A DNA stretch of 25,232 bases from Synergistaceae bacterium OttesenSCG-928-I11 (GCA_030266365.1 JAJDHV010000020.1:1-25232), one strand, 5' to 3'; shown: positions 3,021-18,306, counted from the stretch's first letter. Notes: generated by a model not told the origin, from the letters alone. Translations and numbers: made by a program.

Positions 3021-3095
3021 GCGTTTCCCCTCTTCCGATGGTGAAGAAATATAAATTGTTTATATTCAAACGTTGCAGGCATGTATGTTATCACA

Positions 3096-3142
3096 AAACA
3101 GGCCGGATATGCAGCCTACAACGGCGCATATCCGGCCTGTTT
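3096..3142 (-). terminator. intrinsic terminator after spoVS (17-bp perfect stem AAACAGGCCGGATATGC / GCATATCCGGCCTGTTT, 13-nt loop)
   Basis: Perfect inverted repeat read directly in the sequence. On the minus strand it is followed by TTTTGTGAT, and on the plus strand by TTTTGAAAAAAA. It sits 20 nt after the spoVS stop and about 75 nt upstream of hisS. Confidence 0.7.
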
Positions 3143-3162
3143 TGAAAAAAATGTGCTTTATA

Positions 3163-4074: not shown

Positions 4075-4530
4075 TCAATCGGCAAAAAATTCGTGAAAGC
4101 CCGGTTCCATCTCCTGAAGCCGGATCATCAATTGCTCCAGCGTGATCGAGGCCATTTTCAGGCGCACTGCTTCGCCGATCTCCGCGTAAGGCTCTGTCAG
4201 CAAGTTGGCGATGTTCCTGCCAAAGAGGCACTGCGGCGCAGGGTGCTCGTGTACCCCGACCAGTTCGTCTAGGGACGCGGAATCCACCGCGTTGTAAACC
4301 TCCAGAAGCGTGATGTCCGCCGGTTTTTTTTTCAGCACCGCGCCGCCTGGGCCGCGGGCGACGTCGATGATGCCCGCCTTCTTCAGGCTGCTGAGCAGTT
4401 TGCGGATTTCCACCGGGTTGTTGCCCACGCTGGAGGCGAGAAATTCGCTCGTGATCTTGTAATCGGAAGGCAGCATGGCGATCATCAAGAGCACATGAAT
4501 CGCCGAGGAACACTTGACGCTGATCCGCAT
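4075..4530 (-). CDS. Rrf2 (BadM/IscR/NsrR) family transcriptional regulator
   Basis: MRISVKCSSAIHVLLMIAML...VGNNPVEIRKLLSSLKKAGII is a typical Rrf2 N-terminal wHTH. Start chosen at the second Met (4530) because GGAGGTGAGG lies 6 nt upstream of it. Confidence 0.85.
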   Translation of the reverse strand: MRISVKCSSAIHVLLMIAMLPSDYKITSEFLASSVGNNPVEIRKLLSSLKKAGIIDVARGPGGAVLKKKPADITLLEVYNAVDSASLDELVGVHEHPAPQCLFGRNIANLLTEPYAEIGEAVRLKMASITLEQLMIRLQEMEPGFHEFFAD

Positions 4531-4543
4531 TCGCCTCACCTCC

Positions 4544-4620
4544 ATGTAGAGTTTATCAAATATTTATACGAATTCAAGATGTAGGTATTGACTCTACATT
4601 ATTGCGTGATAGAATGTAGA
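4544..4620. promoter_or_regulatory. Rrf2/cupin divergent control region with four copies of half-site ATGTAGA arranged as two nested palindromes
   Basis: ATGTAGA at 4544-4550; ATGTAG at 4579-4584; CTACAT at 4594-4599 (6-bp arms, 9-nt spacer); TCTACATT at 4593-4600 paired with AATGTAGA at 4613-4620 (8-bp perfect arms, 12-nt spacer). These lie between divergent Rrf2 (minus) and cupin (plus) genes. Confidence 0.5.
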
Positions 4621-5365: not shown

Positions 5366-6541
5366 TTATTCTCCGAAGATCGCAGTGGCTCGCTTCATGC
5401 GATCGATCACGTTCACTGAAAACGGGCAGCGTTGTTCGCAGTTTCCGCAGGCGACGCAGTCGGAGGCGTGCGCGCCGAGCGAACGATAATGCTGCCGCAG
5501 GCTCGGCGGAATTTTTTGTTCATTTTGCCCGCCCTCTTGATCCAGCAGGGCGATGTCCAGATATTTGTTGACTGCCGCGATGTCGATGTCGGCCGGACAG
5601 GGGAGACAGTGGTTGCAGTAGACGCAGCTTCCCTTGAATCCGCCGCGCCCGTCCTCGCGGAACGAGCTGATCGCCTCGGTGTAATCGCGTTCGGCGTCGC
5701 TCGCCTCCAGGTACGATACCGCGGCCTCGACCTCTTCCACGGAGTCGTAGCCGACGAGCGCGCTCGCGACGGCGGGCCGGGTCAGCGCGTAGTGGACGCA
5801 TTGTGCGACCGTCAGGGGTTTTGCAAAGGGCGTGTGGTCCGGCGACAGCAGCTTGCCTGCGCCCAGCGGCTTCATTACCGTGATGCCGACGCCACTGCTC
5901 TGGCATAGCCGGTACAACTCGGCCCGCTTGGGGTCGATCGTCGTGACGTGGGCGGTGAACTGGTCGCCCAGCATCTCATTGATATCGGCGTTGCCCGGCA
6001 TCATGTCGAAAGCGGGGTTGATGCTGAACATGAGCATTTCGACCAATCCCTCCTCCACGAGACGCCGGGCCGTCTCCGGGTTGTGCGTGCTCGCGCCGAT
6101 CGCGCGCACACGCCCTTCGCGCTTCAGGCGCTGCGCGTATTCCACGATGCCGTTGTCGATCATGGCGTCGATGGCCTCGTGCGTATCCATAAAAAACAGC
6201 ATCCCGAAATCGATGTAGTCGGTCTGCAAAAAACGCAGCAGATCTTCGAAGTATCGTTTGCACTCCTTCAAATCGCGGCTGACGTCGAACTGTTCCCGCA
6301 GATCGACGGAGCCGATTGCCCCCTGGATCGACATTTTCTCGCGCCGCCCGCGCAAGGCGTGCCCGATGTTCGTGCGGACGTATTCGCCCGGCATGAAGAG
6401 GTCCATGATATTGATGCCGCGGTCCACTGCGGCGGATATGACCTCTTCCACGAACGTGCGCGGTTTGTCGAACAAATGCTCGCTGCCGAGCCCGATCACG
6501 CTGGCCTCGATTCCCGTGTTCCCGACGTAACGATATTCCAT
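5366..6541 (-). CDS. aldo/keto reductase fused to a C-terminal 4Fe-4S ferredoxin domain (Fe-S oxidoreductase)
   Basis: AKR N-terminus (MEYRYVGNTGIEASVIGLGSEH, ...RAIGASTHN...) and C-terminal CVYCNHCLPCP ... CVACGNCEQRCP (2x CxxCxxCxxxCP). GGAGG lies 7 nt upstream of ATG 6541, so the ORF-track start at 6604 is an overextension. Confidence 0.85.
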   Translation of the reverse strand: MEYRYVGNTGIEASVIGLGSEHLFDKPRTFVEEVISAAVDRGINIMDLFMPGEYVRTNIGHALRGRREKMSIQGAIGSVDLREQFDVSRDLKECKRYFEDLLRFLQTDYIDFGMLFFMDTHEAIDAMIDNGIVEYAQRLKREGRVRAIGASTHNPETARRLVEEGLVEMLMFSINPAFDMMPGNADINEMLGDQFTAHVTTIDPKRAELYRLCQSSGVGITVMKPLGAGKLLSPDHTPFAKPLTVAQCVHYALTRPAVASALVGYDSVEEVEAAVSYLEASDAERDYTEAISSFREDGRGGFKGSCVYCNHCLPCPADIDIAAVNKYLDIALLDQEGGQNEQKIPPSLRQHYRSLGAHASDCVACGNCEQRCPFSVNVIDRMKRATAIFGE

Positions 6542-6625
6542 CTCATGCCTCCGGATTCGCAATGCCGCACTGTATGCGACCGCGTTTTTTGTTTGGGTCA
6601 GCAAGGAGACCTTATCACTTGGAGT

Positions 6626-7210
6626 TCACTCCAAGTCAAGCCGCTTCCCAAAGCTGTAAGCCTCTTTCAAACGCCCGGTCTCCTCGATGCACCTTTTCGT
6701 CGGGGAACCGCCGCAACCGCCAACCAACACCATGCCTTTGTCATGCCAGCCGAGATAGTTGACGCAGTTGAAGCGATAGTAGGAAACGGCCTGTTCGAAC
6801 GTCCAGAAAAGATCGTCGGCTGCGGTCATCAGGAGAGCGCAATCCTTTTCGGCGTGTTTCTCGTACCTGCCCTTCGGCGGGTTGTCGTCCTCCTCCGCGA
6901 CGGCGTAAAGGCGTTCCAGAAATGCTTTCAGTCGAGCGGAAATCGTCCAGAAGTAGAGCGGCGACGCCAGGACGACCATGTCGGATTTCGCGTACAGCGG
7001 GTAGATGTCCTGCATGCCGTCCTTCTGCACGCAGGGTTTTCCCCATCGACAGGCGTTGCAGCCGATACAGCCGTTTATCGTCTTGTCGCCGAGAAACATC
7101 TTCGTCACGGAATGCCCCGCTTCGCTTGCCCCTTTGATAAAGGCATCCGCAAGCTTATCGGTGTTGCAGTTTTTCAGGCCGCTGCCGACGATGACCAAAA
7201 TATTTTTCAT
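6626..7210 (-). CDS. iron-sulfur flavoprotein (Isf)-like flavodoxin-fold NAD(P)H-dependent FMN reductase
   Basis: MKNILVIVGSGLKN...LASPLYFW is a flavodoxin-like FMN fold. It also has the compact Cys cluster GCIGCNACRWGKPC (C-x2-C-x2-C-x5-C) typical of Isf-family proteins. Confidence 0.8.
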   Translation of the reverse strand: MKNILVIVGSGLKNCNTDKLADAFIKGASEAGHSVTKMFLGDKTINGCIGCNACRWGKPCVQKDGMQDIYPLYAKSDMVVLASPLYFWTISARLKAFLERLYAVAEEDDNPPKGRYEKHAEKDCALLMTAADDLFWTFEQAVSYYRFNCVNYLGWHDKGMVLVGGCGGSPTKRCIEETGRLKEAYSFGKRLDLE

Positions 7211-7521
7211 GGCGTCGGCTCAATGGCTTCGAGCTTGAAAATGACGGGGCGCAGGCCGTCGTTACAGCTATTGATGGCGATGTTGCGTTTTTCTATCCAC
7301 TCTGTCCAGAAACCGTCCGCCCCGTGCGCAAGCGCGAAAGCGTATTTGCCGAACGCCGTCCACGCCTCGTCGCACAGCCCCTCCGGCTGTTTGCCAGCTT
7401 CAGAGAGAAAAACCTGCCCGGGCTTATGAAAAGGACAGGCCTCTAATGTCGGATTCCCATACTCCTTCGCAAGTTCTTCGTCGAGCGTCGATTTCAAAAC
7501 CGTGATTTTCACGTCTCTCAT
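7207..7521 (-). CDS. small Cys-containing protein of unknown function (approx. 104 aa, probably TIGR04076-like; paralog of 13680..13946)
   Basis: MRDVKITVLKS...CPFHKPGQVF...LCDEAW...ALAHGADGFW...INSCNDGLRPVIFKLE. AGGGAGGA RBS lies 9 nt upstream of ATG 7521. A 4-nt ATGA overlap with the downstream Isf gene suggests translational coupling. The family name is from memory. Confidence 0.65.
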   Translation of the reverse strand: MRDVKITVLKSTLDEELAKEYGNPTLEACPFHKPGQVFLSEAGKQPEGLCDEAWTAFGKYAFALAHGADGFWTEWIEKRNIAINSCNDGLRPVIFKLEAIEPTP

Positions 7522-7609
7522 AATACAATTTCCTCCCTCTGTTGAGCGACTCACGTTGCCATTTGCTTCATCAGGAGTATATAATTTTCATAAACAGATT
7601 TACAAGTAT

Positions 7610-7636
7610 GCACTTTTTTGACGCATACTTTCATAA
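7610..7636. promoter_or_regulatory. copy A of conserved 27-nt palindromic element AAGTATGC-acttttttgac-GCATACTT
   Basis: Perfect 8-bp inverted arms with an 11-nt spacer. It lies 20 nt upstream of the HxlR-type regulator ATG. It overlaps the -35 (TTGTAA) of a candidate minus-strand promoter for the 7521 operon. A plus-strand TTGCCA-N16-TATATAAT promoter lies just upstream at 7568-7595. A near-identical copy sits at 11994..12020. Confidence 0.55.
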
Positions 7637-7656
7637 AGGAAAGTGTCGTTATGAGT

Positions 7657-8016
7657 ATGAAGGGTTACGAGGGCAAGATCTCCAACATCGCGGACACGCC
7701 GTTCGGCTACACGCTCTCCCTGATCGGCGGCAAGTGGAAGATGGTTATCATGTATTGCCTCATCGAGTGTGGCGTCGTCCGTTACAACGAGTTGCAGCGG
7801 ATGATCGGAACGATTACATACAAGACCCTCAGTGCGCAGTTGAAGGAGTTGGAGGAGGGTGGTCTCGTGTCACGGACGGAATATCCACAGATTCCGCCGA
7901 AGGTGGAATACAGTCTGTCCGAGGACGGTAAATCGCTGATCCCCATCTTGGAGGCCATGTGCGAGTGGGGCGTGGATCACCAGCCGAAGAGGGCAAGGAA
8001 GAATACGCGAAAGTGA
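7657..8016 (+). CDS. HxlR-family (MarR-like wHTH) transcriptional regulator
   Basis: ...FGYTLSLIGGKWKMVIMYCLIECGVVRYNELQRMIGTITYKTLSAQLKELEEGGLVSRTEYPQIPPKVEYSLSEDG is the classic HxlR/YodB-type signature. AAAGGAAAG RBS places the start at ATG 7657. Confidence 0.85.
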   Translation: MKGYEGKISNIADTPFGYTLSLIGGKWKMVIMYCLIECGVVRYNELQRMIGTITYKTLSAQLKELEEGGLVSRTEYPQIPPKVEYSLSEDGKSLIPILEAMCEWGVDHQPKRARKNTRK

Positions 8017-8045
8017 AGGCCCCAGATGATCGAGCCATGATACGG

Positions 8046-8090
8046 CGCCGGGGCGCACGCTAAAATCGCGTGCGCCCCGGCGTTTTTCTT
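8046..8090 (+). terminator. intrinsic terminator (15-bp stem CGCCGGGGCGCACGC / GCGTGCGCCCCGGCG, loop taaaatc, then TTTTTCTT); likely bidirectional for convergent MCP gene
   Basis: Perfect GC-rich stem followed by a U-tract, lying between the hxlR-like stop (8016) and the MCP stop (8090). Confidence 0.8.
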
Positions 8091-10258
8091 CAGCTGGCGA
8101 GTGCGTGGGTTGGATCCTGGTCCTCGGTTTTGAATTGCGACAGGTGTTCCTCGAGCGTCTCGGTCCCGGCCGCGAGCGAGCGTGATTCGCGCTCCACGTT
8201 TTCGGAGACGGCGAGCGTCTGGTTGGTCGCGGTACGGATACTGCCGATGGCGTTGCGGATGCCGCTGGTCGACTCCGTCGTCCTGTGGATGATCTCCAGC
8301 ATCTCGTTGGTGCTGGCGGCCTGTTCCTGCGAGGTCGCCGCCACGCCCTGGATGGAGTCGGAGATCGTGCCCAGCTCCTCCTGCGCGCGGCGGAGATTTT
8401 CCGTCGCATGTTCCGCCTCGCTCTGAACGTCGCGCAGTGCGTCGCGGATGTTGGCGAAGACCTCCTGCGAGTTCCCCGTCTCCTGATCCAGCGAGGTCAC
8501 CAGTTCCGATATCTTCTTCGCCGCGGCGTTGGAGTCCTCGGCCAGTTTGCGCACTTCCTCGGCGACGACGGCGAAACCTCGCCCGGCTTCCCCGGCCCTC
8601 GCCGCTTCGATCGCCGCGTTCAGCGCCAGCAGGTTCGTCTGCTCGGCGATGCCGGAGATTGCGCTGACGAAGCCGGTGATCATACCGACCGAGGAGGAGA
8701 GGCTGTCGATGCTCTGGTCGCAGGCGGTCGTCTGTTCGGCGACCAGAGCGATTTTTTGCACGACCATCTCCACGTCGCGGACGGCGTCTTTGTTCAGGCG
8801 GTCCGTCTGCGCCGCGCGCTCGGCAACATTCGTGATCAACTCGGCGGCGTTGGCGGTTGCTTCGGTGATGCTCTGGGCGCCGGCGTCGATCTGCTGAATG
8901 TCGCGATCGTTGCTCTCGGAGAGGTCGTGCACGTTCTCCACCGCGGCCAGCACGGTCTGGACGTTGGCCAGCGATTCCTGCGACAAGCCGGCGAGCGTGG
9001 CGGAGGAGTGGCTGAAATTTCGCGCCTCCTCGCCGAGCGCGGCTACGGTATTGTTCAGGGAACCCTTTAGGTCGCGGATGGCTCTGCTCATGTCCCCAAT
9101 CTCGTCCGACGCCCCTTCGTAACGCGAGAGGACGTCCTTGTTTCCCGTGCCGCCGGCCGTGAGGTCGAGTTCGCCGAATCGCTTGAGGATCTCAGAGGTC
9201 GTCGTGATCGGCCGCACGATGCGGCGCACCATGATCGTCAGCACGACGCCGAGAATGGACAGTCCTGCCAGCGAAGCCAGCACGATGCGCCAGACCAGCG
9301 CCGAGCGCTCCCGATCGGCGATGATCGACGGCACGGAGAGCGAGAAGGACCAGGGCTTGCCCGTGTCCCCGATCTTGACCGGCTGGTGGCAGAAGGCGGT
9401 ATTTCCTCGCCCGTCCGGTGCGGGAATGACGAAGTACGTGGAGCCCCCCTCCTGGATCATCCGCATTGTCTCGTCGGTGTTGCTCGCCCCTAGCTCGCGG
9501 TAGTTTTTGCCGATGAACGACTTGTCGAAGCGGCTGACGATCACGCCGTCGTTGGAGAAGAGCGTGGCCCGGCCCCCCTCCGGAAGCTGAAACGACGAGA
9601 CGATGCGGTCGAGCAGCGCCAGCGAGAGGTCGATACCGGCAACCCCGATCCGTTTGTTGCCCCGCTCGATCGGGATGCCGATAGTGGTGACGAGCACATT
9701 GTCGCTGGGGTTGCCCGTGTAACTGTAGAGGAAGGGCTCGATGAGCGTCTCCGCCCCGCCCCTCAGCGCTTCGTGATACCAGTCGAACATTGCCACGTCT
9801 CTCTCGCTGATGTTCTCCGTGGTCTGCGTGATCGTGTTCCCGTTGCGGCTGAAGATGCCGATCATCCGACCGGCCTCGTTGTAGCCGTTCCTTCCAGCAT
9901 AGTCCCGGTCCAGGCCGTCGAAGGCGTCCGCTTCGTAGACGACCCAGGCGGAGGTGATGTCGGGCATGTTGATGAGGAAGTTCTTTGTGATTTGCAGCAG
10001 CTCGTCGCGCGCGCCTTCCTGATGTGGATCGAGGCTGCTCACCACGGAGGCGAACGTCCGCAGCGCTCCGATGGACGTGTTGAGGGTGGCCTCCACCATG
10101 TTGCTCGCCGAGGCCGCATTCGCCCGCACCGACTCTTCGGCAGCCCTGGCGCTCGACTGCGATACCTGAAGAACGATCAGCAGGCTCATTATGACGAAGA
10201 CAGACAACGCCACACCCAATACGCCCAACAACATTTTCTTCTGCATGTTCAATCTCAT
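8090..10258 (-). CDS. methyl-accepting chemotaxis protein with extracytoplasmic dCache-type sensor domain
   Basis: N-terminal TM helix, an extracytoplasmic domain of about 250 aa, a second TM helix, HAMP, then the MCP signalling domain ([31 protein letters not shown]). The start is set at ATG 10258 (MRLNMQKK) because GGGTGG lies 5 nt upstream. The track GTG at 10267 is less likely. The 9192..10280 ORF is an off-frame artifact. Confidence 0.9.
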
Positions 10259-10562
10259 ATTCGCCACCCTTTCGGATCATCGTGGCCCTCGCGCGCTTCG
10301 ATACGCCCGACCGGTTTCGGTTTCGGAAGCGGTTCCGGCATTATGTTTCGGCGCTTAGCATAACTGTTTGTGAAGGCATAAAAAAGGTATTTTTCTCTGG
10401 TTGAAAATCGCGCTGGCTACTGAAAATGTCACATTCTGGCATTCGCGCATAAAGTTACTCTTGACATGACGGAGTTTGCTGCTAGTGAGGAAGCGGCTTT
10501 CAGGGTAGAAGGAGCCCAGCGTGGGAAACTTTATGACAGAAGGAGTGTTTGTTTATACAAAG

Positions 10563-10602
10563 CAGGCGGGCGTTTGTTTGACAAACGCCCGCCTGTTTTT
10601 AT
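10563..10602. terminator. hairpin CAGGCGGGCGTTTG / CAAACGCCCGCCTG with TTTTTAT on plus strand and CTTTGTATAAA on minus strand
   Basis: Perfect 14-bp stem lying 19 nt after the rsgA stop (minus strand). The better U-tract faces the plus strand, where no coding gene ends. Confidence 0.6.
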
Positions 10603-10620
10603 CGATTTGCGCAAGGCCAT

Positions 10621-11715
10621 TCAGTCCGGAAATCCCTTGCGCTTCTTGTTTTTCTCCCGCGCAAACTTGCGCGCGTTCTTCATGCCGCCCACAAAGGCGA
10701 ACATTTCGTTGAGCTTCTTCGTCTCGATCTCCCTGGAGCTGAGGCCCTCGTACGACGCCTCTTTCCCGAGTTTTTGCCAGCTCTGGAAACGCTCAATCGA
10801 GAGCGCGCCTTCGTCGATCGCCCTGCGCACGGCGCAGCCCGGCTCTTTTGTGTGGCTGCAATCGTGAAACCGGCACGCGGACGCAAGTTCGTCGATGTCC
10901 GCAAAGGTCCTGGAGACGTTCGCGCGCTCCAGGCCGAGCTCCCGCATCCCCGGCGTGTCGATGAGCATGCCGCCGCCCTCCAATGGGATCAGTTCGCGCC
11001 TCGTGGTCGTGTGTCTCCCCTTGTCGTCGTTTCTCAGCCCTTTCGTGTCCTGTCTGTCCGCGCCGAGAAGACAGTTGATGAGGGTCGATTTGCCGACGCC
11101 GGAGGATCCGATGAAAGCGACCGTATGCCCCTCTTCGATATGGCGTTCGAGTGCGCGGCAGCCGTCCGCCTGCAATGCCGAGGTGACGTGGACATCCACG
11201 CCGATCGCGACCGCGTTCACCTCGCGAAGCCGCGCCTCCACATCGTCGCACAGATCCGATTTCGTCAACACGACGACGGGCGCAGCACCGCTGTCCCAGG
11301 CGATCGAAAGATAACGTTCCAGCCTGCGCAGGTTGAAGTCGTTGTTCAGCGACATGCAGATGAAGACCGTGTCGATATTGCTTGCCACAACCTGCTCGTC
11401 GTTTGACGTTCCCGCCGCTTTCCGGATGAACGCGCTCTTTCTCGGCAACACGTGGTGAATGATGGCGTTCCCGTTTGCATCCGTATCCCGGTCGAGCATG
11501 ACGAAATCGCCGACCGCCGGAAAATCCGACGCCGCCTTCGCTTCGAAGCGAAATTTTCCGGAGACCTCCGCCATCAGCTCTCCCTTTTGGCTCATGACGG
11601 TGTACAAATCCTTATACTGGGAAAAAACCCGCCCGACGAAAAGTCCCTCGTGTGTGGCGGCCTCCGCGGCGAGGCGATCCGTAAGTCCCAGTTTCTTCAT
11701 ATCTGTTCGATTCAA
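10621..11715 (-). CDS. rsgA: ribosome small-subunit biogenesis GTPase RsgA (YjeQ/YloQ)
   Basis: N-terminal OB-fold, circularly permuted GTPase motifs (VVVLTKSDL ... FIGSSGVGKSTLIN ... DTPG), and the zinc-finger CRFHDCSHTKEPGCAV. TTG start at 11715 has AGGAGGG 7 nt upstream. There is an unusual extra basic C-terminal tail of about 45 aa. Confidence 0.85.
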   Translation of the reverse strand: MNRTDMKKLGLTDRLAAEAATHEGLFVGRVFSQYKDLYTVMSQKGELMAEVSGKFRFEAKAASDFPAVGDFVMLDRDTDANGNAIIHHVLPRKSAFIRKAAGTSNDEQVVASNIDTVFICMSLNNDFNLRRLERYLSIAWDSGAAPVVVLTKSDLCDDVEARLREVNAVAIGVDVHVTSALQADGCRALERHIEEGHTVAFIGSSGVGKSTLINCLLGADRQDTKGLRNDDKGRHTTTRRELIPLEGGGMLIDTPGMRELGLERANVSRTFADIDELASACRFHDCSHTKEPGCAVRRAIDEGALSIERFQSWQKLGKEASYEGLSSREIETKKLNEMFAFVGGMKNARKFAREKNKKRKGFPD

Positions 11716-11993
11716 TGTTCTGCCCTCCTGTGAGTTATCGAAATAACCGATGGGAGGTTCGTGCCATCAGACGCCGCAAACCTCCCGGCTTGCCGCAATC
11801 CTCGTTGTACCGAACTGACACATCAACATGCATCTCCTTCTTGGTTGAAATACAAAAAACGACCACCCCAAGCATCGTGGGCACCTGGCCCACTATAACA
11901 CAACGATGCAATACGAGTATAGAAAAGCAAGGTTCGGGTGTAAATATATAAACAAATTAATTGGATGTTATTAAATGTATTGGCATAGAGCAC

Positions 11994-12020
11994 AAGTATG
12001 CGCTTTTTTGACGTATACTT
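11994..12020. promoter_or_regulatory. copy B of conserved 27-nt element AAGTATGC-gcttttttgac-GTATACTT
   Basis: Matches copy A at 25 of 27 positions, including the spacer. Flanking bases are also shared (caAGTATGC ... ACTTTtATAgA). It lies 64 nt upstream of the Crp-family regulator start, next to an unusually AT-rich stretch (11940-11990). Confidence 0.55.
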
Positions 12021-12083
12021 TTATAGATTGAAATCGCTGGCCAACGCCACTCGATAGAATAAATATGAAGCGAGGTAATTCTT

Positions 12084-12806
12084 TTGCTTGACGCCAAAGA
12101 CATCGAACTGCTTAAAGCGACGTTCCCCTTTTGGGACAAACTGTCCGATGACGAAGCCAACCTGCTTCTCTCGGGCACAAAACCCGTTTTGTACAAACAA
12201 GGCGGCCATATTCACAGCCCGGCAAACGAGTGTGTCGGGGTTCTGCTCGTGAAAAGCGGCGAGCTTCGTACCTATATATTGTCGAAGGGCGGAAAGGAGA
12301 TCACCCTGTTCCGCCTGAGCAAAGGCGAAGTCTGTGTATTGTCGGCATCCTGCCTGATCAGCAGCATCACCTTCGACGTCTTTATCGACGCGCAGCAGGA
12401 CATGCAAGTGCTGCACATCGACTCCGCAGTTTTTTCCCAGCTCCAAGCGGGCAACCTCCATGTGGAGAACTTTGCCCTCAAGGTGGCGGCAAATCGATTC
12501 TCCGACGTCGTGTGGGCCATGGAGCAAATTTTATTCATGAGCTTTGACGTCCGTCTTGCCGTTTTTCTCCTCGAAGAAACATCGAAAAACGGCACCGACA
12601 ACCTCATGCTCACCCACGAACAGATTGCAAAATATATCGGCAGCGCGCGCGAGGTCGTCTCCCGGATGCTCAAATATTTTGCAAACGAAGGAATCGTCCG
12701 GCTGCATCGCGGCAGCGTGGAGATCGTCGATAAGCATGCCTTGAAGAAACTGGTGCAGTCAAAGGCAAATGAGCGCAGGAATAATCAGGAAGCATCGCCT
12801 TCCTGA
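12084..12806 (+). CDS. Crp/Fnr-family transcriptional regulator (cNMP-binding domain + C-terminal HTH with R-E-x-x-x-R recognition helix; no Fnr-type N-terminal Cys cluster)
   Basis: cNMP-binding beta-roll (GELRTYILSKGGKEITLFRLSKGEVCV) and HTH EQIAKYIGSAREVVSRMLKYFANEGIV. TTG start at 12084 as in the track; a GAGGT RBS lies 8 nt upstream. The nearby ATG at 12065 is out of frame. Confidence 0.85.
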   Translation: MLDAKDIELLKATFPFWDKLSDDEANLLLSGTKPVLYKQGGHIHSPANECVGVLLVKSGELRTYILSKGGKEITLFRLSKGEVCVLSASCLISSITFDVFIDAQQDMQVLHIDSAVFSQLQAGNLHVENFALKVAANRFSDVVWAMEQILFMSFDVRLAVFLLEETSKNGTDNLMLTHEQIAKYIGSAREVVSRMLKYFANEGIVRLHRGSVEIVDKHALKKLVQSKANERRNNQEASPS

Positions 12807-13363
12807 TTGTCGTATTTCAGCTTGCAGATCATCTGCGTCATCGTTCCCATCGGACAAATCACGCACCAGGAGCGCGGGCGAAAGAAGACCATAAAAATCA
12901 TGCCGATCAGAACCGACGTCAGCATCAGGCTGTAAAACCCAAACGCGAACTGCGCGACCCACGGCGTCACGATTCCGTCCGCATACGCCCACTGCCAGGG
13001 CAGCCTGAATGTCCAGAACAACGTGATCATTTCAATTAAATTATGTACCCCAGAAAACACCAGGTATGTGCTGAAGAGCATGTTGCCGAACATGGCCATA
13101 AAAAAAGCCAGAAAGCCGTACCGAAACCACTTGCTGTACAAAAAATTCGGCATCTTGTTGTTCAACGAGAACTTTGACCCCAAAAGCGCGAACAGTTGCC
13201 CACGCCCGCAGTAATCGTTGCAGTATCCCTTCGTCCCCTTGATGATGGATATGAGCAGGGGAATCATAAAACAGAACACCCCAAGCCAGGCAAAGAGGAT
13301 ATTGACAAACCCCAGAACGATATAGAGCGAGGAGGTGATCCAAAGATAATCGTACCATTTCCC
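12785..13363 (-). CDS. integral membrane protein of unknown function with Cys motifs (CNDYCGRG; CVICPMG), co-operonic with ferredoxin
   Basis: The track ORF 12785..13567 is a read-through fusion; its first about 65 residues are an off-frame translation of the ferredoxin gene. The real start is probably GTG 13363 (VIKGKWYDY...), with GGAGG 10 nt upstream. The protein has about five hydrophobic helices. Its 3' end overlaps the convergent crp-like gene by 22 nt. Confidence 0.55.
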   Translation of the reverse strand, partial: GKWYDYLWITSSLYIVLGFVNILFAWLGVFCFMIPLLISIIKGTKGYCNDYCGRGQLFALLGSKFSLNNKMPNFLYSKWFRYGFLAFFMAMFGNMLFSTYLVFSGVHNLIEMITLFWTFRLPWQWAYADGIVTPWVAQFAFGFYSLMLTSVLIGMIFMVFFRPRSWCVICPMGTMTQMICKLKYDNQEGDAS

Positions 13364-13368
13364 CTTGA

Positions 13369-13560
13369 TCACTTTTCCCCAACCTCCAACCGGATCAGGC
13401 AGGCTGGGCACGCTTTGACGCACTTGCCGCACCCGACACATCCCGCTTGGTCGACAACAGCCGTAACGCCCCTGTCGATGAAGATCGCGGATTTGGGGCA
13501 GACCTTTACGCATGTACCACACGCAACACAGTGTCGCGTGTCGACGACCGCTTTTTTCAT
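13369..13560 (-). CDS. 2x[4Fe-4S] ferredoxin (63 aa)
   Basis: CVACGTCVKVCP and CVGCGKCVKACP, two CxxCxxCxxxCP motifs. GGAG RBS lies just upstream of ATG 13560. Confidence 0.85.
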   Translation of the reverse strand: MKKAVVDTRHCVACGTCVKVCPKSAIFIDRGVTAVVDQAGCVGCGKCVKACPACLIRLEVGEK

Positions 13561-13592
13561 GAGGCACGCTCCTTCACATCAATGACTTCATC

Positions 13593-13633
13593 ATAATATG
13601 TGAAAATTTAGTGTGCTTCAGTGACCTGGTCAC
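13593..13633 (-). promoter_or_regulatory. conserved promoter/operator module, copy F (minus strand): palindrome GTGACCAGGTCAC (13633-13621), -35 CTGAAG (13621-13616), 17-nt spacer, -10 TATTAT (13598-13593)
   Basis: About 58 nt are shared at about 80% identity with 14764..14818, in the same orientation relative to the downstream gene. The predicted TSS near 13586 gives a 26-nt leader to the ferredoxin ATG. Confidence 0.55.
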
Positions 13634-14763: not shown

Positions 14764-14804
14764 TGTGACCAAGTCACTGAAGTTCGCGGGATTTTCACAT
14801 ATGA
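14764..14804 (+). promoter_or_regulatory. conserved promoter/operator module, copy C (plus strand): palindrome GTGACCAAGTCAC (14764-14776), -35 CTGAAG (14776-14781), 17-nt spacer, -10 TATGAT (14799-14804)
   Basis: Duplicate of the 13593..13633 module. The predicted TSS near 14811 gives a leader of about 123 nt to the CoADR ATG. The palindrome centre is about 41 bp upstream of the TSS, a class-II-activator-type position. Confidence 0.55.
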
Positions 14805-14834
14805 TGAAACCATTGATATGGAACGGGTTTTGTG

Positions 14835-14901
14835 ATGGAAACGTCGTTTTCAGCAGTTCGATATCCTTGGCGTCTAACAGGAAAATCACCTCATTCTGCA
14901 T
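14835..14901 (-). pseudogene. inverted duplicate of the crp-family gene 5' end (RBS region + first about 22 codons), embedded in CoADR leader
   Basis: Minus-strand sequence atgcagaatgaggtgattttcctgttagacgccaaggatatcgaactgctgaaaacgacgtttcc aligns at about 80% with 12064..12131 (atgaagcgaggtaattcttttgcttgacgccaaagacatcgaactgcttaaagcgacgttccc). It encodes MQNEVIFLLDAKDIELLKTTFP, against Crp MLDAKDIELLKATFP. The 70-codon ORF that follows (to 14689) has no SD and loses similarity. Confidence 0.4.
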
Positions 14902-14934: not shown

Positions 14935-16593
14935 ATGAATAAGAAAATTCTGATCGTCGGCGGTGTGGCAGGCGGCGCTTCGGCGGCAGCGAGACTTCGG
15001 AGGCTGGATGAGCACGCGGAAATCATCATGTTCGAAAAGGGCGAGTACATTTCCTTTGCCAACTGCGGCCTGCCGTACTACATCGGCGGAGAGATCGAAA
15101 AACGCGCCTCGCTCATCCTGCAAACGCCGGAGGCTTTCCGCGGCCGTTTTAACGTCGACGTCCGCATATGCAGCGAAGTTGCCGCCATCGACCGGACAAA
15201 AAAGACCGTCACGGTAAAAAACCACAAAACCGGTGAGAGCTATACCGAACGTTACGACAGCCTGATTCTGTCGCCCGGAGCGGAGCCAATCAAACCGTCG
15301 ATCGGCGGGGTCGACTCCAAAGGGGTATTCACCCTGCGGAATCTATCCGATACGGACAGGATCAAAAATTTCATCGCAGAGAACAAACCGCACACCGTCG
15401 CAATCGTCGGCGGAGGGTATATCGGCGTCGAGATGGCCGAAAATCTTCACAAGGCGGGGCTCGACGTGACGCTGATCGAGATGCTGAATCAGGTCATCGC
15501 CCCGCTCGACTTCGATATGGCCTGCGGCGTACATCGCCATATCGAAAGCAAGGGCGTGAAGTTGCTTCTTGAGACCGCCGTGAAATCCATACAGGGCCAT
15601 AATGGCAAACTCCAGGTCGAGTTGAGCAAGGGTTCGCTGGACGTCGACATGCTGATCCTCTCCATCGGCGTGAGACCCGAGACCGGCCTTGCCAGACATG
15701 CCGGATTGGAGCTGAACGAGCGCGGCTCCATCATCGTCGACGGGAACATGCGCACATCCGACAAGGACATCTACGCGGTGGGCGACGCCGTGGAGGTGAC
15801 GGACTTCGTAACGGGCCAGAGGACGTTTATCCCGCTGGCAGGGCCTGCCAACAAACAGGGGCGCATCGCCGCCGACAACATTTGCGGCATAGAGAGCCGC
15901 TACACGGGAACGCAGGGGAGCGCCATCCTGCGGGTGTTCGACATGACGGTCGCGACCACCGGGGTCAACGAGAAGACCGCCGCTCGTCTCGGCCTCGATT
16001 ACGACAAGATCTTTACACACCCCACCAGCCACGCGATGTACTATCCGGGGTTTGAATACACCGCCATCAAAACGTTGTTCGATCGGAAAACGGGCAAGAT
16101 ACTCGGGGCGCAGGTCGTCGGGTTCGAGGGCTGCGACAAAAACTGCGATGTGCTTGCAACGGCAATCCGGTTTGGGGCGACGGCAAAAGACCTGACCGAG
16201 CTGGAGCTCTGTTATGCGCCGCCGTACTCGTCCGCGAAAGACCCGGTAAACATGATCGGTTTCGCGATCGAGAATCTGCTGTCGGGGAAATACAGGCAAA
16301 TCCACTGGCACGATTACGGGAAACTGCCGCGCGACGGCAGCGTCATCTTCCTGGACACGAGGATGAAAGAGGAGTCCGAGGGTGCGCCCATCGGAGGATT
16401 TATCAATATTCCGACGAACGAGCTCCGAAATCGGCTGCACGAACTGGACAAAAACAAAACCATCTACGTAAGCTGTCGCGTCGGGTTGCAGGGATATATC
16501 ACATGCCGCATGTTAAGCCAGCACGGCTTTACCTGCTACAATTTCAGCGGAGGATACAGGCTCTACAAGGACCTGTTCGGTGTGAAAAAATAA
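14935..16593 (+). CDS. CoA-disulfide reductase with C-terminal rhodanese domain (CoADR-RHD / NADH-dependent persulfide reductase type)
   Basis: FAD fold GVAGGASAA; redox-active Cys in SFANCGLPYYIGG (CoADR/Nox signature); NAD fold VAIVGGGYIGVE. The C-terminal rhodanese module has the active-site loop CRVGLQG. GGGAGG RBS lies 8 nt upstream. Confidence 0.9.
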   Translation: MNKKILIVGGVAGGASAAARLRRLDEHAEIIMFEKGEYISFANCGLPYYIGGEIEKRASLILQTPEAFRGRFNVDVRICSEVAAIDRTKKTVTVKNHKTGESYTERYDSLILSPGAEPIKPSIGGVDSKGVFTLRNLSDTDRIKNFIAENKPHTVAIVGGGYIGVEMAENLHKAGLDVTLIEMLNQVIAPLDFDMACGVHRHIESKGVKLLLETAVKSIQGHNGKLQVELSKGSLDVDMLILSIGVRPETGLARHAGLELNERGSIIVDGNMRTSDKDIYAVGDAVEVTDFVTGQRTFIPLAGPANKQGRIAADNICGIESRYTGTQGSAILRVFDMTVATTGVNEKTAARLGLDYDKIFTHPTSHAMYYPGFEYTAIKTLFDRKTGKILGAQVVGFEGCDKNCDVLATAIRFGATAKDLTELELCYAPPYSSAKDPVNMIGFAIENLLSGKYRQIHWHDYGKLPRDGSVIFLDTRMKEESEGAPIGGFINIPTNELRNRLHELDKNKTIYVSCRVGLQGYITCRMLSQHGFTCYNFSGGYRLYKDLFGVKK

Positions 16594-16702
16594 AAAACAC
16601 CGCTCGTTGACGGATTGCCATGCCATCAAAGCACAGGTTTAGCGTTTGGGAGCCGTGCCTTGGTTGTCTCACGTTTGGGCCTTTCGCCCATATGTCGCCG
16701 TA

Positions 16703-16710
16703 TGTATAAT
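16703..16710 (+). promoter_or_regulatory. candidate -10 (TGTATAAT, near-extended) for the tlpA-like operon; small palindrome GCACAggTGTGC at 16732-16743 in the leader
   Basis: Perfect TATAAT preceded by TG, 55 nt upstream of ATG 16765. No convincing -35, and no clear terminator between CoADR and this gene, so read-through from CoADR is also possible. Confidence 0.3.
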
Positions 16711-16764
16711 GACCTTCTGCACAGGTGTGCGGACGAAAAAGACAGATGGAGAGGATGAATCAAC

Positions 16765-17268
16765 ATGAGAAAATTTGCGTTTGTGATCACACTGGCTGTG
16801 CTGGCAATTGCGATGGCTGGCACGGCTTTTGCAGCGGACGCGTTTCCCGCCTTCAAGTCCTATAATCTGGCGGGAGAGGAAGTGTCGCAGGAGATTTTCG
16901 CCGGCAAGAAGCTGACGATGATCAACTTCTGGGGGACCTACTGCCCACCGTGCATCAGTGAGATGCCCGACCTCGGCGAGCTGGGGCGGTCGATGCCGGA
17001 AGGGACGCAGCTCGTGGGGATCGTGATCGATGTCGGCGACAAGGAGACGTTCGAAAAGGCCATCGAGATCACGAAAACCGCGAATGCCGACTTCCCCAAC
17101 ATTTTGATCTCGCAGGAGATGATCCCCTATCTGGAGACGATCGTGGCCGTGCCGACGACGATCTTTGTCGACGCACAGGGCAATGTCATCGGCGAGCCGA
17201 TCGTCGGATCGCGCTCTGGAAAGGCCTATCGCGGTGAAGTCGAAAAGGCCTTGAAACTTTTGCCGTAG
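16765..17268 (+). CDS. TlpA/ResA-like thiol:disulfide oxidoreductase (thioredoxin fold), secreted/lipid-anchored
   Basis: N-terminal signal peptide MRKFAFVITLAVLAIAMAGTAFAA and the thioredoxin active site WGTYCPPC. GGAGAGG RBS. Confidence 0.85.
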   Translation: MRKFAFVITLAVLAIAMAGTAFAADAFPAFKSYNLAGEEVSQEIFAGKKLTMINFWGTYCPPCISEMPDLGELGRSMPEGTQLVGIVIDVGDKETFEKAIEITKTANADFPNILISQEMIPYLETIVAVPTTIFVDAQGNVIGEPIVGSRSGKAYRGEVEKALKLLP

Positions 17269-17275
17269 CTCGAAA

Positions 17276-17422
17276 TGTCTGACTCCAGGAGGCGCTTGCT
17301 CCGCGCGGTGCTGCTTGTGACGGCCTTTTTCTTCGTCTTCATCGGTTGGAAGAGGGGGGAAGTCGCATCTGTGCTCGTCAAGGCGATCTTCGTCTGCCTC
17401 GAGTGCATCGGGATCGGCTAGC
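17276..17422 (+). CDS. possible small membrane protein (48 aa, MSDSRRRLLRAVLLVTAFFFVFIGWKRGEVASVLVKAIFVCLECIGIG)
   Basis: An unannotated ORF between the tlpA-like stop and the napH-like start. It has basic N-terminal residues then one hydrophobic helix carrying a CxxC. No good SD, and it falls below the ORF-track size cutoff. Confidence 0.2.
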
Positions 17423-17436
17423 TCGGACACGCCGCA

Positions 17437-18306
17437 ATGCTTCGCAAGGCTGCACAGTGGTTGAACCTGTTACTCAGCAACGCCTACTTGCCGGGCTTCT
17501 GGCTGGGGCGCATCTATAAGGGCAAGCTGAAATCCGTTTGTGTGCCGGGGTTGAATTGCTACTCCTGCCCGGGGGCCGTTGCTTCCTGCCCGTTGGGCTC
17601 TTTGCAGGCTTCCTTCGGCGGGGGCGGATTTTACCCCGGTTTTTACGTCGTCGGTTTGCTGCTGGCTTTCGGCGCGCTCTTCGGCCGCTTCGTATGCGGG
17701 TTTCTCTGCCCCTTCGGCCTGATGCAGGAGCTGCTGTACAAAATGCCGATTCCACGTCCCTGCAAACGAACGGCAGGCCAAGTTCGCCACTGGTCGCGCT
17801 ACATCAAATACGCCGTGCTGATCATCTTCGTGATCGGAATGCCGGCACTGCTGGCGGGCGATTCGGGGTTGGCCTCTCCCGCTTTCTGCAAGTACATCTG
17901 CCCGGCGGGCACGCTGACCGCTGGATTGCCGCTTTTGGCCGCCAACAGCTCCCTGCGCGCGGCGGCGGGAGCCCTCTTTGTCTGGAAGTTTGCCGTGGCG
18001 GTCGCGATCGTTCTCGGCTGTTTGCTGATCCTTCGTTTTTTTTGCAAATACCTTTGTCCGCTGGGCGCAATCTACGCGCTCTTCAACCGCGTGGCTCTCT
18101 ACCGCCTGCGGTTGACGCCGGAGAACTGCGTCCACTGCGGCGACTGCATCCGCGCCTGCCCGATGGGGGTAGACCCCTCGCACGACCCCGACAGCGGCGA
18201 GTGCATCCGCTGCGGCGATTGCGCAAAAGCTTGTAAATACAACGCCCTGCACACCGGATTTGCATGCGGCGAACGAGAGGCCAAGAAAACGGCAGCCCGC
18301 TGCTGA
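17437..18306 (+). CDS. NapH/MauN-like membrane-bound polyferredoxin (4 TM helices with C-x3-CP motifs plus C-terminal 2x[4Fe-4S] ferredoxin domain)
   Basis: CGFLCPFG, CKYICPAG and CKYLCPLG in predicted TM segments. C-terminal CVHCGDCIRACP and CIRCGDCAKAC. Confidence 0.8.
   Translation: MLRKAAQWLNLLLSNAYLPGFWLGRIYKGKLKSVCVPGLNCYSCPGAVASCPLGSLQASFGGGGFYPGFYVVGLLLAFGALFGRFVCGFLCPFGLMQELLYKMPIPRPCKRTAGQVRHWSRYIKYAVLIIFVIGMPALLAGDSGLASPAFCKYICPAGTLTAGLPLLAANSSLRAAAGALFVWKFAVAVAIVLGCLLILRFFCKYLCPLGAIYALFNRVALYRLRLTPENCVHCGDCIRACPMGVDPSHDPDSGECIRCGDCAKACKYNALHTGFACGEREAKKTAARC

Follow-up and report, generated by a model that had tools for sequence, protein, structure and literature searches.

In a 25,232-nt stretch of DNA from Synergistaceae bacterium OttesenSCG-928-I11 (GCA_030266365.1, JAJDHV010000020.1:1-25232; hereafter, the window), two nearly identical palindromic elements lie upstream of genes for two different transcriptional regulators, one from the HxlR family (copy A) and one from the Crp/Fnr family (copy B). 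This raises the question of which protein, if any, recognizes these elements, and whether they link the two regulators. From comparisons across genomes, copy A is very probably the operator of the adjacent regulator, which is a winged-helix protein of the HxlR/DUF24 family. The fuller explanation, in which copy A is this operator and copy B is likely a weaker secondary site, also seems to us a good account of the sequences, and we consider it probable. Sites of this kind are already well known, and in that respect copy A is an ordinary feature.

Copy A lies on the plus strand at 7604-7630, which is 6 nt to the left of where the original prediction had placed it (7610-7636); copy B is at 11994-12020, also on the plus strand, just as predicted. 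Copy A reads AAGTATGCACTTTTTTGACGCATACTT, or AAGTATGC-ACTTTTTTGAC-GCATACTT when split into left arm, spacer, and right arm (element positions 1-27). Copy B reads AAGTATGCGCTTTTTTGACGTATACTT, or AAGTATGC-GCTTTTTTGAC-GTATACTT. The two copies are identical at 25 of 27 positions, as had been noted, and the flanks are conserved as well: the ungapped, in-register match extends to 31 of 34 positions (7602-7635 versus 11992-12025). Alignment of the two regions breaks down outside of this stretch. Inverted arms of 8 bp had been described for both copies. Those of copy A are indeed perfectly complementary, but those of copy B pair at only 7 of 8 positions (AAGTATGC versus GTATACTT, with one G.T position).

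Within the window, the element is rare. Searching for the arms separated by any 11 nt, with up to 3 mismatches, found copies A and B and nothing else, as compared to 0.03 matches expected from shuffled sequences. We also scored the window with a weight matrix that was trained solely on sites from other organisms. Across element positions 1-29, copy A scored 49.2 bits and copy B scored 38.9 bits; the next-best site in the window scored -0.1 bits, and the maximum for shuffled windows was 7.4 bits. A full-text search of the literature for the motif strings found no occurrence of any 13-mer, and the shorter strings matched only human mitochondrial DNA.

Outside of the window, the element accompanies HxlR regulators. 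We found it beside genes for HxlR orthologs (56-76% identical) in Hungatella, Kineothrix, and Oceanobacillus and at about 20 metagenome loci. The loci from Hungatella and the Oceanobacillus-type loci were retrieved via homologs of the HxlR protein, without using the motif. Hungatella hathewayi has the same divergent pair of hxlR and TIGR04076 genes as the window does (the proteins are 72% and 58% identical, respectively), with AAGTACGCACTTTTTCACCGCATACTAtcataaagga between them and at the same distance from the start codon of hxlR. (TIGR04076 is a family of small cysteine-rich proteins.) In the Oceanobacillus-type loci (L053-L055 and L001), AAGTATGCACTTTTATGACACCCACTAtcgtaaaggatagc is immediately 5' of a promoter that drives an arginase-arginase-hxlR operon, and it abuts the -35 box.

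We also asked which of the two divergent genes the element goes with. Among 80 genomic loci with TIGR04076 genes, from genomes other than the host's, 79 have neither hxlR nor the element. The remaining locus, from Kineothrix (L096), is the only one with a divergent hxlR and is also the only one with the element (25/27 positions). Similarly, a locus that encodes a close ortholog of the TIGR04076 protein (L162; 84% identity) and lacks hxlR does not have the element. Because TIGR04076 loci without hxlR lack the element, we conclude that it follows hxlR and not the TIGR04076 protein.

To this we added a scan of metagenomes with a degenerate pattern that was built from five sites. The scan returned 26 sites in 24 loci, and 22 of the sites are members of the family. 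Sixteen sites lie directly 5' of a gene for an HxlR homolog (56-72% identical), all in the same orientation, and the usual divergent neighbors are TIGR04076, flavin mononucleotide (FMN) reductase, arginase-family, SIR2-like, or NmrA-like genes. The other sites are orphans or are tandem duplicates beside truncated remnants of hxlR. We set aside four sites (at L140, L154, L145, and L147) that look like chance matches, which is near the number that we roughly expected; around L140, which is the one of the four that we inspected, there is no open reading frame of 70 or more amino acids in 4 kb. One metagenome contig has three tandem modules (L152, at 7400, 9675, and 11823; also L137 and L141), each comprising a pair of SIR2-like genes with its own full operator. 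After each of the first two come just the truncated beginnings of hxlR genes, which implies that the operator was duplicated along with its target genes.

Overall, the site accompanies orthologous regulators even where the genomes are unrelated, and its position is conserved. In the window, the adjacent gene encodes a PF01638 protein, and the inverted repeat lies in the 5' region of that gene, beside a divergent operon of oxidoreductases. The original prediction had viewed copy A as an autoregulated HxlR-type operator between divergent promoters, and the travel of the element with HxlR orthologs across phyla supports this view.

The alignment of these sites revealed that the conserved unit is not the 27-mer that was first described but a composite of about 42 bp (7604-7645, plus strand; 66.5 bits) that is conserved with the HxlR orthologs. 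It contains two inverted repeats: IR1, which is the 27-mer and lies distal to hxlR, and the proximal IR2, which had been overlooked. IR2 lies at 7627-7645 on the plus strand and scores 25.1 bits, versus a background in the window of at most 9.5 bits. Its sequence in the window is ACTTTC-ATAAAG-GAAAGT (7627-7644), followed by a G. Across the family, the core of IR1 is AGTAyG...CrTACT, with the spacer CACTTTT(T/A)TGAC, and the consensus of IR2 is ACTATC-N6-GATAGT. IR2 shares positions 24-27 with the right arm of IR1 and encloses the Shine-Dalgarno sequence of hxlR. If we consider only positions that lie beyond the 27-mer and that were not fixed by our pattern, then 27-29 (ATC), A34, G36, A37, A39, G40, and T41 are near-invariant. 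In contrast, the perfect 8-bp arms are specific to the window: of 20 family sites, 17 lack pairing between positions 1 and 27 (pair 1/27), and 10 lack it at pair 8/20.

The element also keeps a fixed register with the promoters and the start codons, which again fits with an HxlR-type unit. In 13 of 22 family sites, a gap of 17-18 nt separates the end of the hxlR -10 box from the element, and in 16 of 22, the -35 box of the promoter on the opposite strand starts at element position 1, 2, or 3. The conservation of the spacer, which had been reported from the two copies in the window, turns out to be genuine and family-wide. The suggestion that TTGACG within the spacer is a -35 box did not hold up, as the conserved promoters are elsewhere: the forward -10 box ends before the element and the reverse -35 box abuts its left arm. 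Because the conservation of the spacer runs across the family, we take the spacer to be a part of the operator that the protein recognizes, and not a -35 box. It may provide a further ACTT unit or be an A/T tract that is read through the shape of the DNA.

The genes around both copies are those that had been described. The HxlR-family gene lies 3' of copy A, at 7657-8016 on the plus strand (119 amino acids in NCBI's annotation; there is another in-frame ATG at 7651). The divergent operon is on the minus strand and begins with the TIGR04076 gene (7207-7521), followed by a gene for an FMN reductase or flavodoxin-like-fold protein (6626-7210, which overlaps the stop codon of the TIGR04076 gene) and a gene for an aldo-keto reductase with C-terminal 4Fe-4S domains (5366-6604). 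The predicted promoter of hxlR is TTGCCA-18-TATAAT, at 7556-7585 on the plus strand, with transcription starting near 7592. The predicted promoter of the divergent operon is TTGTAA-18-TATACT, at 7576-7605 on the minus strand, and its -35 box overlaps the first two bases of IR1. The two predicted promoters overlap fully (7576-7585), so that their -10 boxes share bases. Furthermore, each start site lies inside the opposite promoter, which would yield transcripts that overlap by about 23 nt; this layout is kept across the family. With these promoters, the element would extend from about +12 to +54 with respect to hxlR and from about -35 to -76 with respect to the divergent operon; because the promoter positions are predicted, so are these placements.

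From this arrangement, we infer a mechanism for binding and regulation. The HxlR regulator would bind both IR1 and IR2, probably as two dimers. Occupancy at +12 to +54 would hinder the transcription of hxlR, which would give negative autoregulation; from -35 to -76, the bound regulator could activate the divergent operon, much as HxlR, HypR, and RrpA activate from upstream sites. Alternatively, the bound regulator could repress the divergent operon by masking its -35 box. The divergent promoter has a weak, TTGT-type -35 box and often an 18-bp spacer. We lean slightly towards activation of the operon with negative autoregulation of hxlR, over masking of the -35 box. The signal would probably be an electrophile, a quinone, or redox stress, and it would be sensed otherwise than by the classical N-terminal cysteine, which is absent from this subfamily.

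The regulator itself belongs to PF01638 (HxlR; 8e-32, 109 bits), and its closest solved structures are YdzF, HxlR, and HypR, with YodB much further away. The best-matching NCBIfam model describes RrpA of Campylobacter jejuni (NF047367), but because the score of 140.8 bits falls below the cutoff of 185, the window's protein is not an RrpA equivalog. The recognition helix (NELQR-IG-ITYKTLS) and the wing (EYPQIPPKVEY) are near-invariant among the orthologs that are linked to the element. The protein does not have the cysteine motif of the thiol switch (CP-x-E-x-TL-x-x-IGGKW): in an alignment to PDB 7kd3, Thr14 aligns with the sensor cysteine. The corresponding motif, DTPFGYT, is invariant in the subfamily, with threonine in the place where YodB and HypR have their N-terminal sensor cysteine. 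Judging by these alignments, this is a YdzF/RrpA/HypR-like subfamily without a sensor cysteine. The same assembly encodes a second HxlR paralog (P0002, on a contig of 5.5 kb) that is 85% identical, with the same recognition helix and a nearly identical wing. From these similarities, P0002 could be a binder of copies A and B, and the P0002 locus may contain further copies. Looking up the exact sequences of the window's HxlR protein (in its 121-amino-acid form) and of P0002 gave no matches.

How does this operator compare with characterized sites? HypR (YybR) from Bacillus subtilis activates hypO and protects the 7-2-7 repeat GTATCAAAATTGATAC there, in a footprint that spans about 43 bp (-53 to -95); there is also a HypR box at +24 to +39 of hypR itself (PMC3351151). 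The window's regulator is from the same protein family (E = 1e-24 to PDB 4a5n), and both systems place an inverted-repeat operator in the 5' region of the regulator gene itself as well as ahead of a target gene for a flavin oxidoreductase. The TATC-N6-GATA geometry of the family's IR2 is also the geometry of GTATCAA-AA-TTGATAC. However, copy A reads TTTC-N6-GAAA instead of TATC/GATA, and copy B has no such repeat. The window also differs in having a single shared site between overlapping divergent promoters, along with the wide-spaced IR1 and its T-rich spacer, and the sensor of HypR (Cys14) is a threonine in the window's protein.

In front of both mdaB and rrpA, RrpA protects TATCAT repeats with a spacing of 19 or 24 nt, and it activates mdaB, which encodes a flavodoxin-fold quinone reductase (PMC8765430). 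Like the window's element, these are wide-spaced inverted repeats (TATCAT-N19/N24) at the regulator's own gene and at the gene for a flavodoxin-fold reductase, and the consensus of the family's IR2 shares their TATC half-site; unit 3 of several family sites reads ACTATCAT. The spacing and the sequence of the repeats are different, and the window's targets include the TIGR04076 protein and the aldo-keto reductase. The closest solved structure is YdzF from B. subtilis (PDB 9wvg and 9x3c; E = 2.8e-29), which also lacks the N-terminal cysteine (APFEYTLS, as compared to TPFGYTLS in the window's protein). Its recognition helix and wing (ITHKMLS and SHTPLKVEY) differ from the window's (ITYKTLS and YPQIPPKVEY). 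The literature that was searched contained no paper on YdzF, and the paper on the HxlR structure gave no detail on the operator. YodB and CatR are repressors from the same family and control genes for the detoxification of electrophiles and quinones. The half-sites of the B. subtilis YodB box, TACTATTTGTAGTA, are TACTA/TAGTA-like and resemble units 3 and 4 of the element. In contrast to the window's element, in which the half-sites are 6 bp apart, those of YodB abut, and YodB is the most distant of the PDB matches (8.7e-12), with the equivalent of its Cys6 absent from the window's protein.

We now turn to copy B. It lies 5' of the Crp/Fnr-family gene (crp, 12084-12806, plus strand) and about 280 nt upstream of the start of a divergent gene for an RsgA-like GTPase (10621-11715, minus strand). 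The predicted -10 box of crp is TAGAAT (12055-12060, plus strand), which aligns with TATAAT and TATAGT in orthologs of crp. This would put copy B at about -47 to -73 relative to the predicted start of transcription, a position that resembles the activator sites of the HxlR family; it may have been recruited as a secondary site. Across positions 1-29, copy B scores just under the range of the family and far above background. Across all 42 positions, its score is just 35.3 bits (the minimum for the family is 52), because IR2 is missing. Copy B is an orphan IR1 with its spacer and most likely forms a weaker secondary site for this HxlR or for the 85%-identical paralog. We put the chance that it is functional at slightly better than even. 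If it is bound, then crp or the divergent leader would be tied to the signal of HxlR; this link from HxlR to crp is plausible but unproven. An alignment had also suggested that ATATGAAGCG, which is downstream of copy B, could be a remnant of the start of hxlR, but we rejected this because the stretch is homologous to the leader of crp in the orthologs.

Several observations weigh against our explanation. The metagenome sites were selected by pattern, so their conservation is to some extent circular wherever the pattern fixed a position. The half-sites of IR1 are about 17-19 bp apart, center to center, which is wide for a single winged-helix dimer, and because of this the stoichiometry of binding is a guess. 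The remaining concerns are about copy B. It departs from the family at A9, which all 23 of 23 sites have, and at C29, which is present in 22 of 23; it does not have G36 or G40 of IR2 and hence is not a complete composite site; and neither of the family-type promoters is present around it. Nor is the element found upstream of the two closest orthologs of crp, from related Synergistaceae (86% and 90% identical), and because both lack it, we view copy B as lineage-specific. All of these features of copy B would also be expected if the HxlR operator were copy A alone, with copy B left over from a local rearrangement or duplication and without function. Such a history would fit with the scars nearby, namely a duplicated 5' fragment of crp and a duplicated promoter segment, and with the orphan or duplicated operators beside truncated hxlR remnants at L152 and L137. 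On the other hand, the similarity of the two copies ends within 2-5 nt of IR1 on both sides even though nearly all of the bases in between were kept, and for random breakpoints to fall there would be a coincidence. Also, copy B still scores about 30 bits over background. We consider a relic to be possible but rather doubtful.

The remaining alternatives concern the nature of the element. Given the predicted promoter, all of it would be transcribed as the leader of hxlR, and IR1 and IR2 share four positions, with the Shine-Dalgarno sequence in the loop of IR2. The element might therefore act as RNA, with IR1 and IR2 as mutually exclusive hairpins that gate the ribosome-binding site. IR2 is 90% paired across the family, with a few double changes (slight covariation). 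However, the covariation of IR1 is not above that of shuffled controls, and its pairs 1/27, 6/22, and 8/20 show C.A and A.A mismatches that are not compensated; RNAalifold gives a consensus energy of -1.26 kcal/mol, to which covariation contributes -0.06; and single sequences have z-scores of -0.1 to -2.5 and folds that disagree with each other. We found no meaningful match to Rfam at gathering or permissive thresholds, and the element does not have the GC-rich stem and U-run of an intrinsic terminator. In the Oceanobacillus-type loci, the element is fully conserved even though it precedes the regulated promoter and runs antisense to the genes on either side; and copy B is upstream of the predicted -10 box of crp. 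A DNA operator is thus much better supported than an RNA element, which we consider very unlikely. We give similarly little credence to a combination of the two, in which the 42-nt element is a dual DNA/RNA switch that the leaders of a single HxlR subfamily have retained across phyla and copy B is a co-opted, DNA-only half that lets the same signal control the Crp/Fnr regulator.

A composite of operator and promoter also seems quite unlikely to us. In this scenario, TTGACG in the spacer would be the -35 box of an internal promoter, with its -10 box at (T/A)AGT(G/A)T, and the mRNA of hxlR would be leaderless. T16, G17, A18, and C19 are indeed conserved, and 17 nt downstream, A39 and T43 match positions 2 and 6 of a -10 box. 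But G40 and T41 are conserved contrary to the -10 consensus, which is consistent with IR2; a purine-rich Shine-Dalgarno sequence is retained 8-10 nt upstream of the ATG, although a leaderless mRNA would have no use for it; and the family conserves a better promoter upstream. The window has AAGTGT in the place of this -10 box, a promoter scan did not report a site there, and copy B has no such -10 box. Finally, the element could be the site of some other factor, such as the Crp-type protein, an Rrf2 protein, or a third regulator, or a generic dispersed repeat. Copy B precedes crp, a gene for an Rrf2 regulator is nearby (4075-4545), and Rrf2 sites are long palindromes. The half-sites of CRP and FNR have the consensus TGTGA-N6-TCACA or TTGAT-N4-ATCAA, and no half-site of either type is present in copy A or copy B. 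Furthermore, no Crp homolog is encoded near the site at any of the 24 metagenome loci, whereas most have HxlR. The proposal in the original prediction that a third factor co-regulates both regulators found no support. As for a dispersed repeat, such as a repetitive extragenic palindrome or a miniature inverted-repeat transposable element, there are just two copies in 25 kb, both of them intergenic, and elsewhere the element is tied to hxlR. A search of viral contigs with just the arms gave 48 matches, and because all of their spacers are unrelated, we regard these as chance background. Both another factor and a dispersed repeat strike us as extremely improbable.

We made several other observations about the region around crp. 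The ribosome-binding site and the first 14 or so codons of crp are duplicated in inverted orientation (12072-12127 versus 14837-14892; 80% identity). The duplicate reaches a stop codon after about 63 codons and adjoins a gene for a coenzyme A (CoA)-disulfide reductase with a rhodanese domain (14935-16593); in a relative (L161), an intact crp occupies the place of this fragment beside the CoA-disulfide-reductase-like gene. A second duplicated segment (13591-13633 versus 14765-14807) includes a perfect palindrome, GTGAC-CTG-GTCAC, which is GTGAC-CAA-GTCAC in the other copy. This GTGAC-N3-GTCAC palindrome is upstream of a Fer4_5 gene (13567-12785) and may be another operator. On the minus strand, ahead of the rsgA-like gene, 11769-11944 contains a promoter-like TTTACA-17-TATACT, a GCAUCGU/ACGAUGC stem, a GGGC/GCCC stem, and a U-run, and then a cysteine-containing open reading frame of 20 codons (MLMCQFGTTRIAASREVCGV). 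The hairpin in this leader has no match in Rfam and folds no better than shuffled sequences do (z = -0.2). Upstream of the crp ortholog in Synergistaceae OttesenSCG-928-D05 (L160, 1100-1330), there are about four tandem repeats of about 60 nt (…gaaattcaaacaaacgtgtgaatttcc…), adjoining an IS3-like transposase.

The window is also rich in genes related to redox and stress. Besides the Rrf2 regulator and the FMN reductase and Fe-S aldo-keto reductase of the divergent operon (5366-7521), it encodes Fer4_5 polyferredoxin-like proteins as well as the CoA-disulfide reductase with a rhodanese domain (12785-13567 and 14935-18306). Just past the start of the gene for histidyl-tRNA synthetase (3020-1740, minus strand), the arms of a perfect inverted repeat of 19 bp enclose a loop of 13 nt (CAAAACAGGCCGGATATGC ... 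GCATATCCGGCCTGTTTTG, 3094-3144). Close homologs of the TIGR04076 protein (58-66% identity) are found in contigs (L056-L135) labeled as Methanomassiliicoccales, Methanosphaera, Bathyarchaeia, Bacteroidales, Desulfovibrio, Gastranaerophilales, Lentisphaeria, and many Clostridia, and almost none of these have an adjacent hxlR. This small cysteine-rich protein appears to be widely shared among gut anaerobes.

In summary, the element at copy A is a new and well-defined addition to a known kind of system, and it leaves the general understanding of HxlR-type regulators unchanged. The operator model covers a widespread and uncharacterized subfamily of HxlR regulators in gut anaerobes, which is YdzF/RrpA-like and does not have the sensor cysteine. 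The model would provide the first regulatory context for some TIGR04076 genes and for several flavin and NAD(P)H oxidoreductases. And if copy B works, then it would be an example of how the recruitment of an operator can wire one stress regulator to another.

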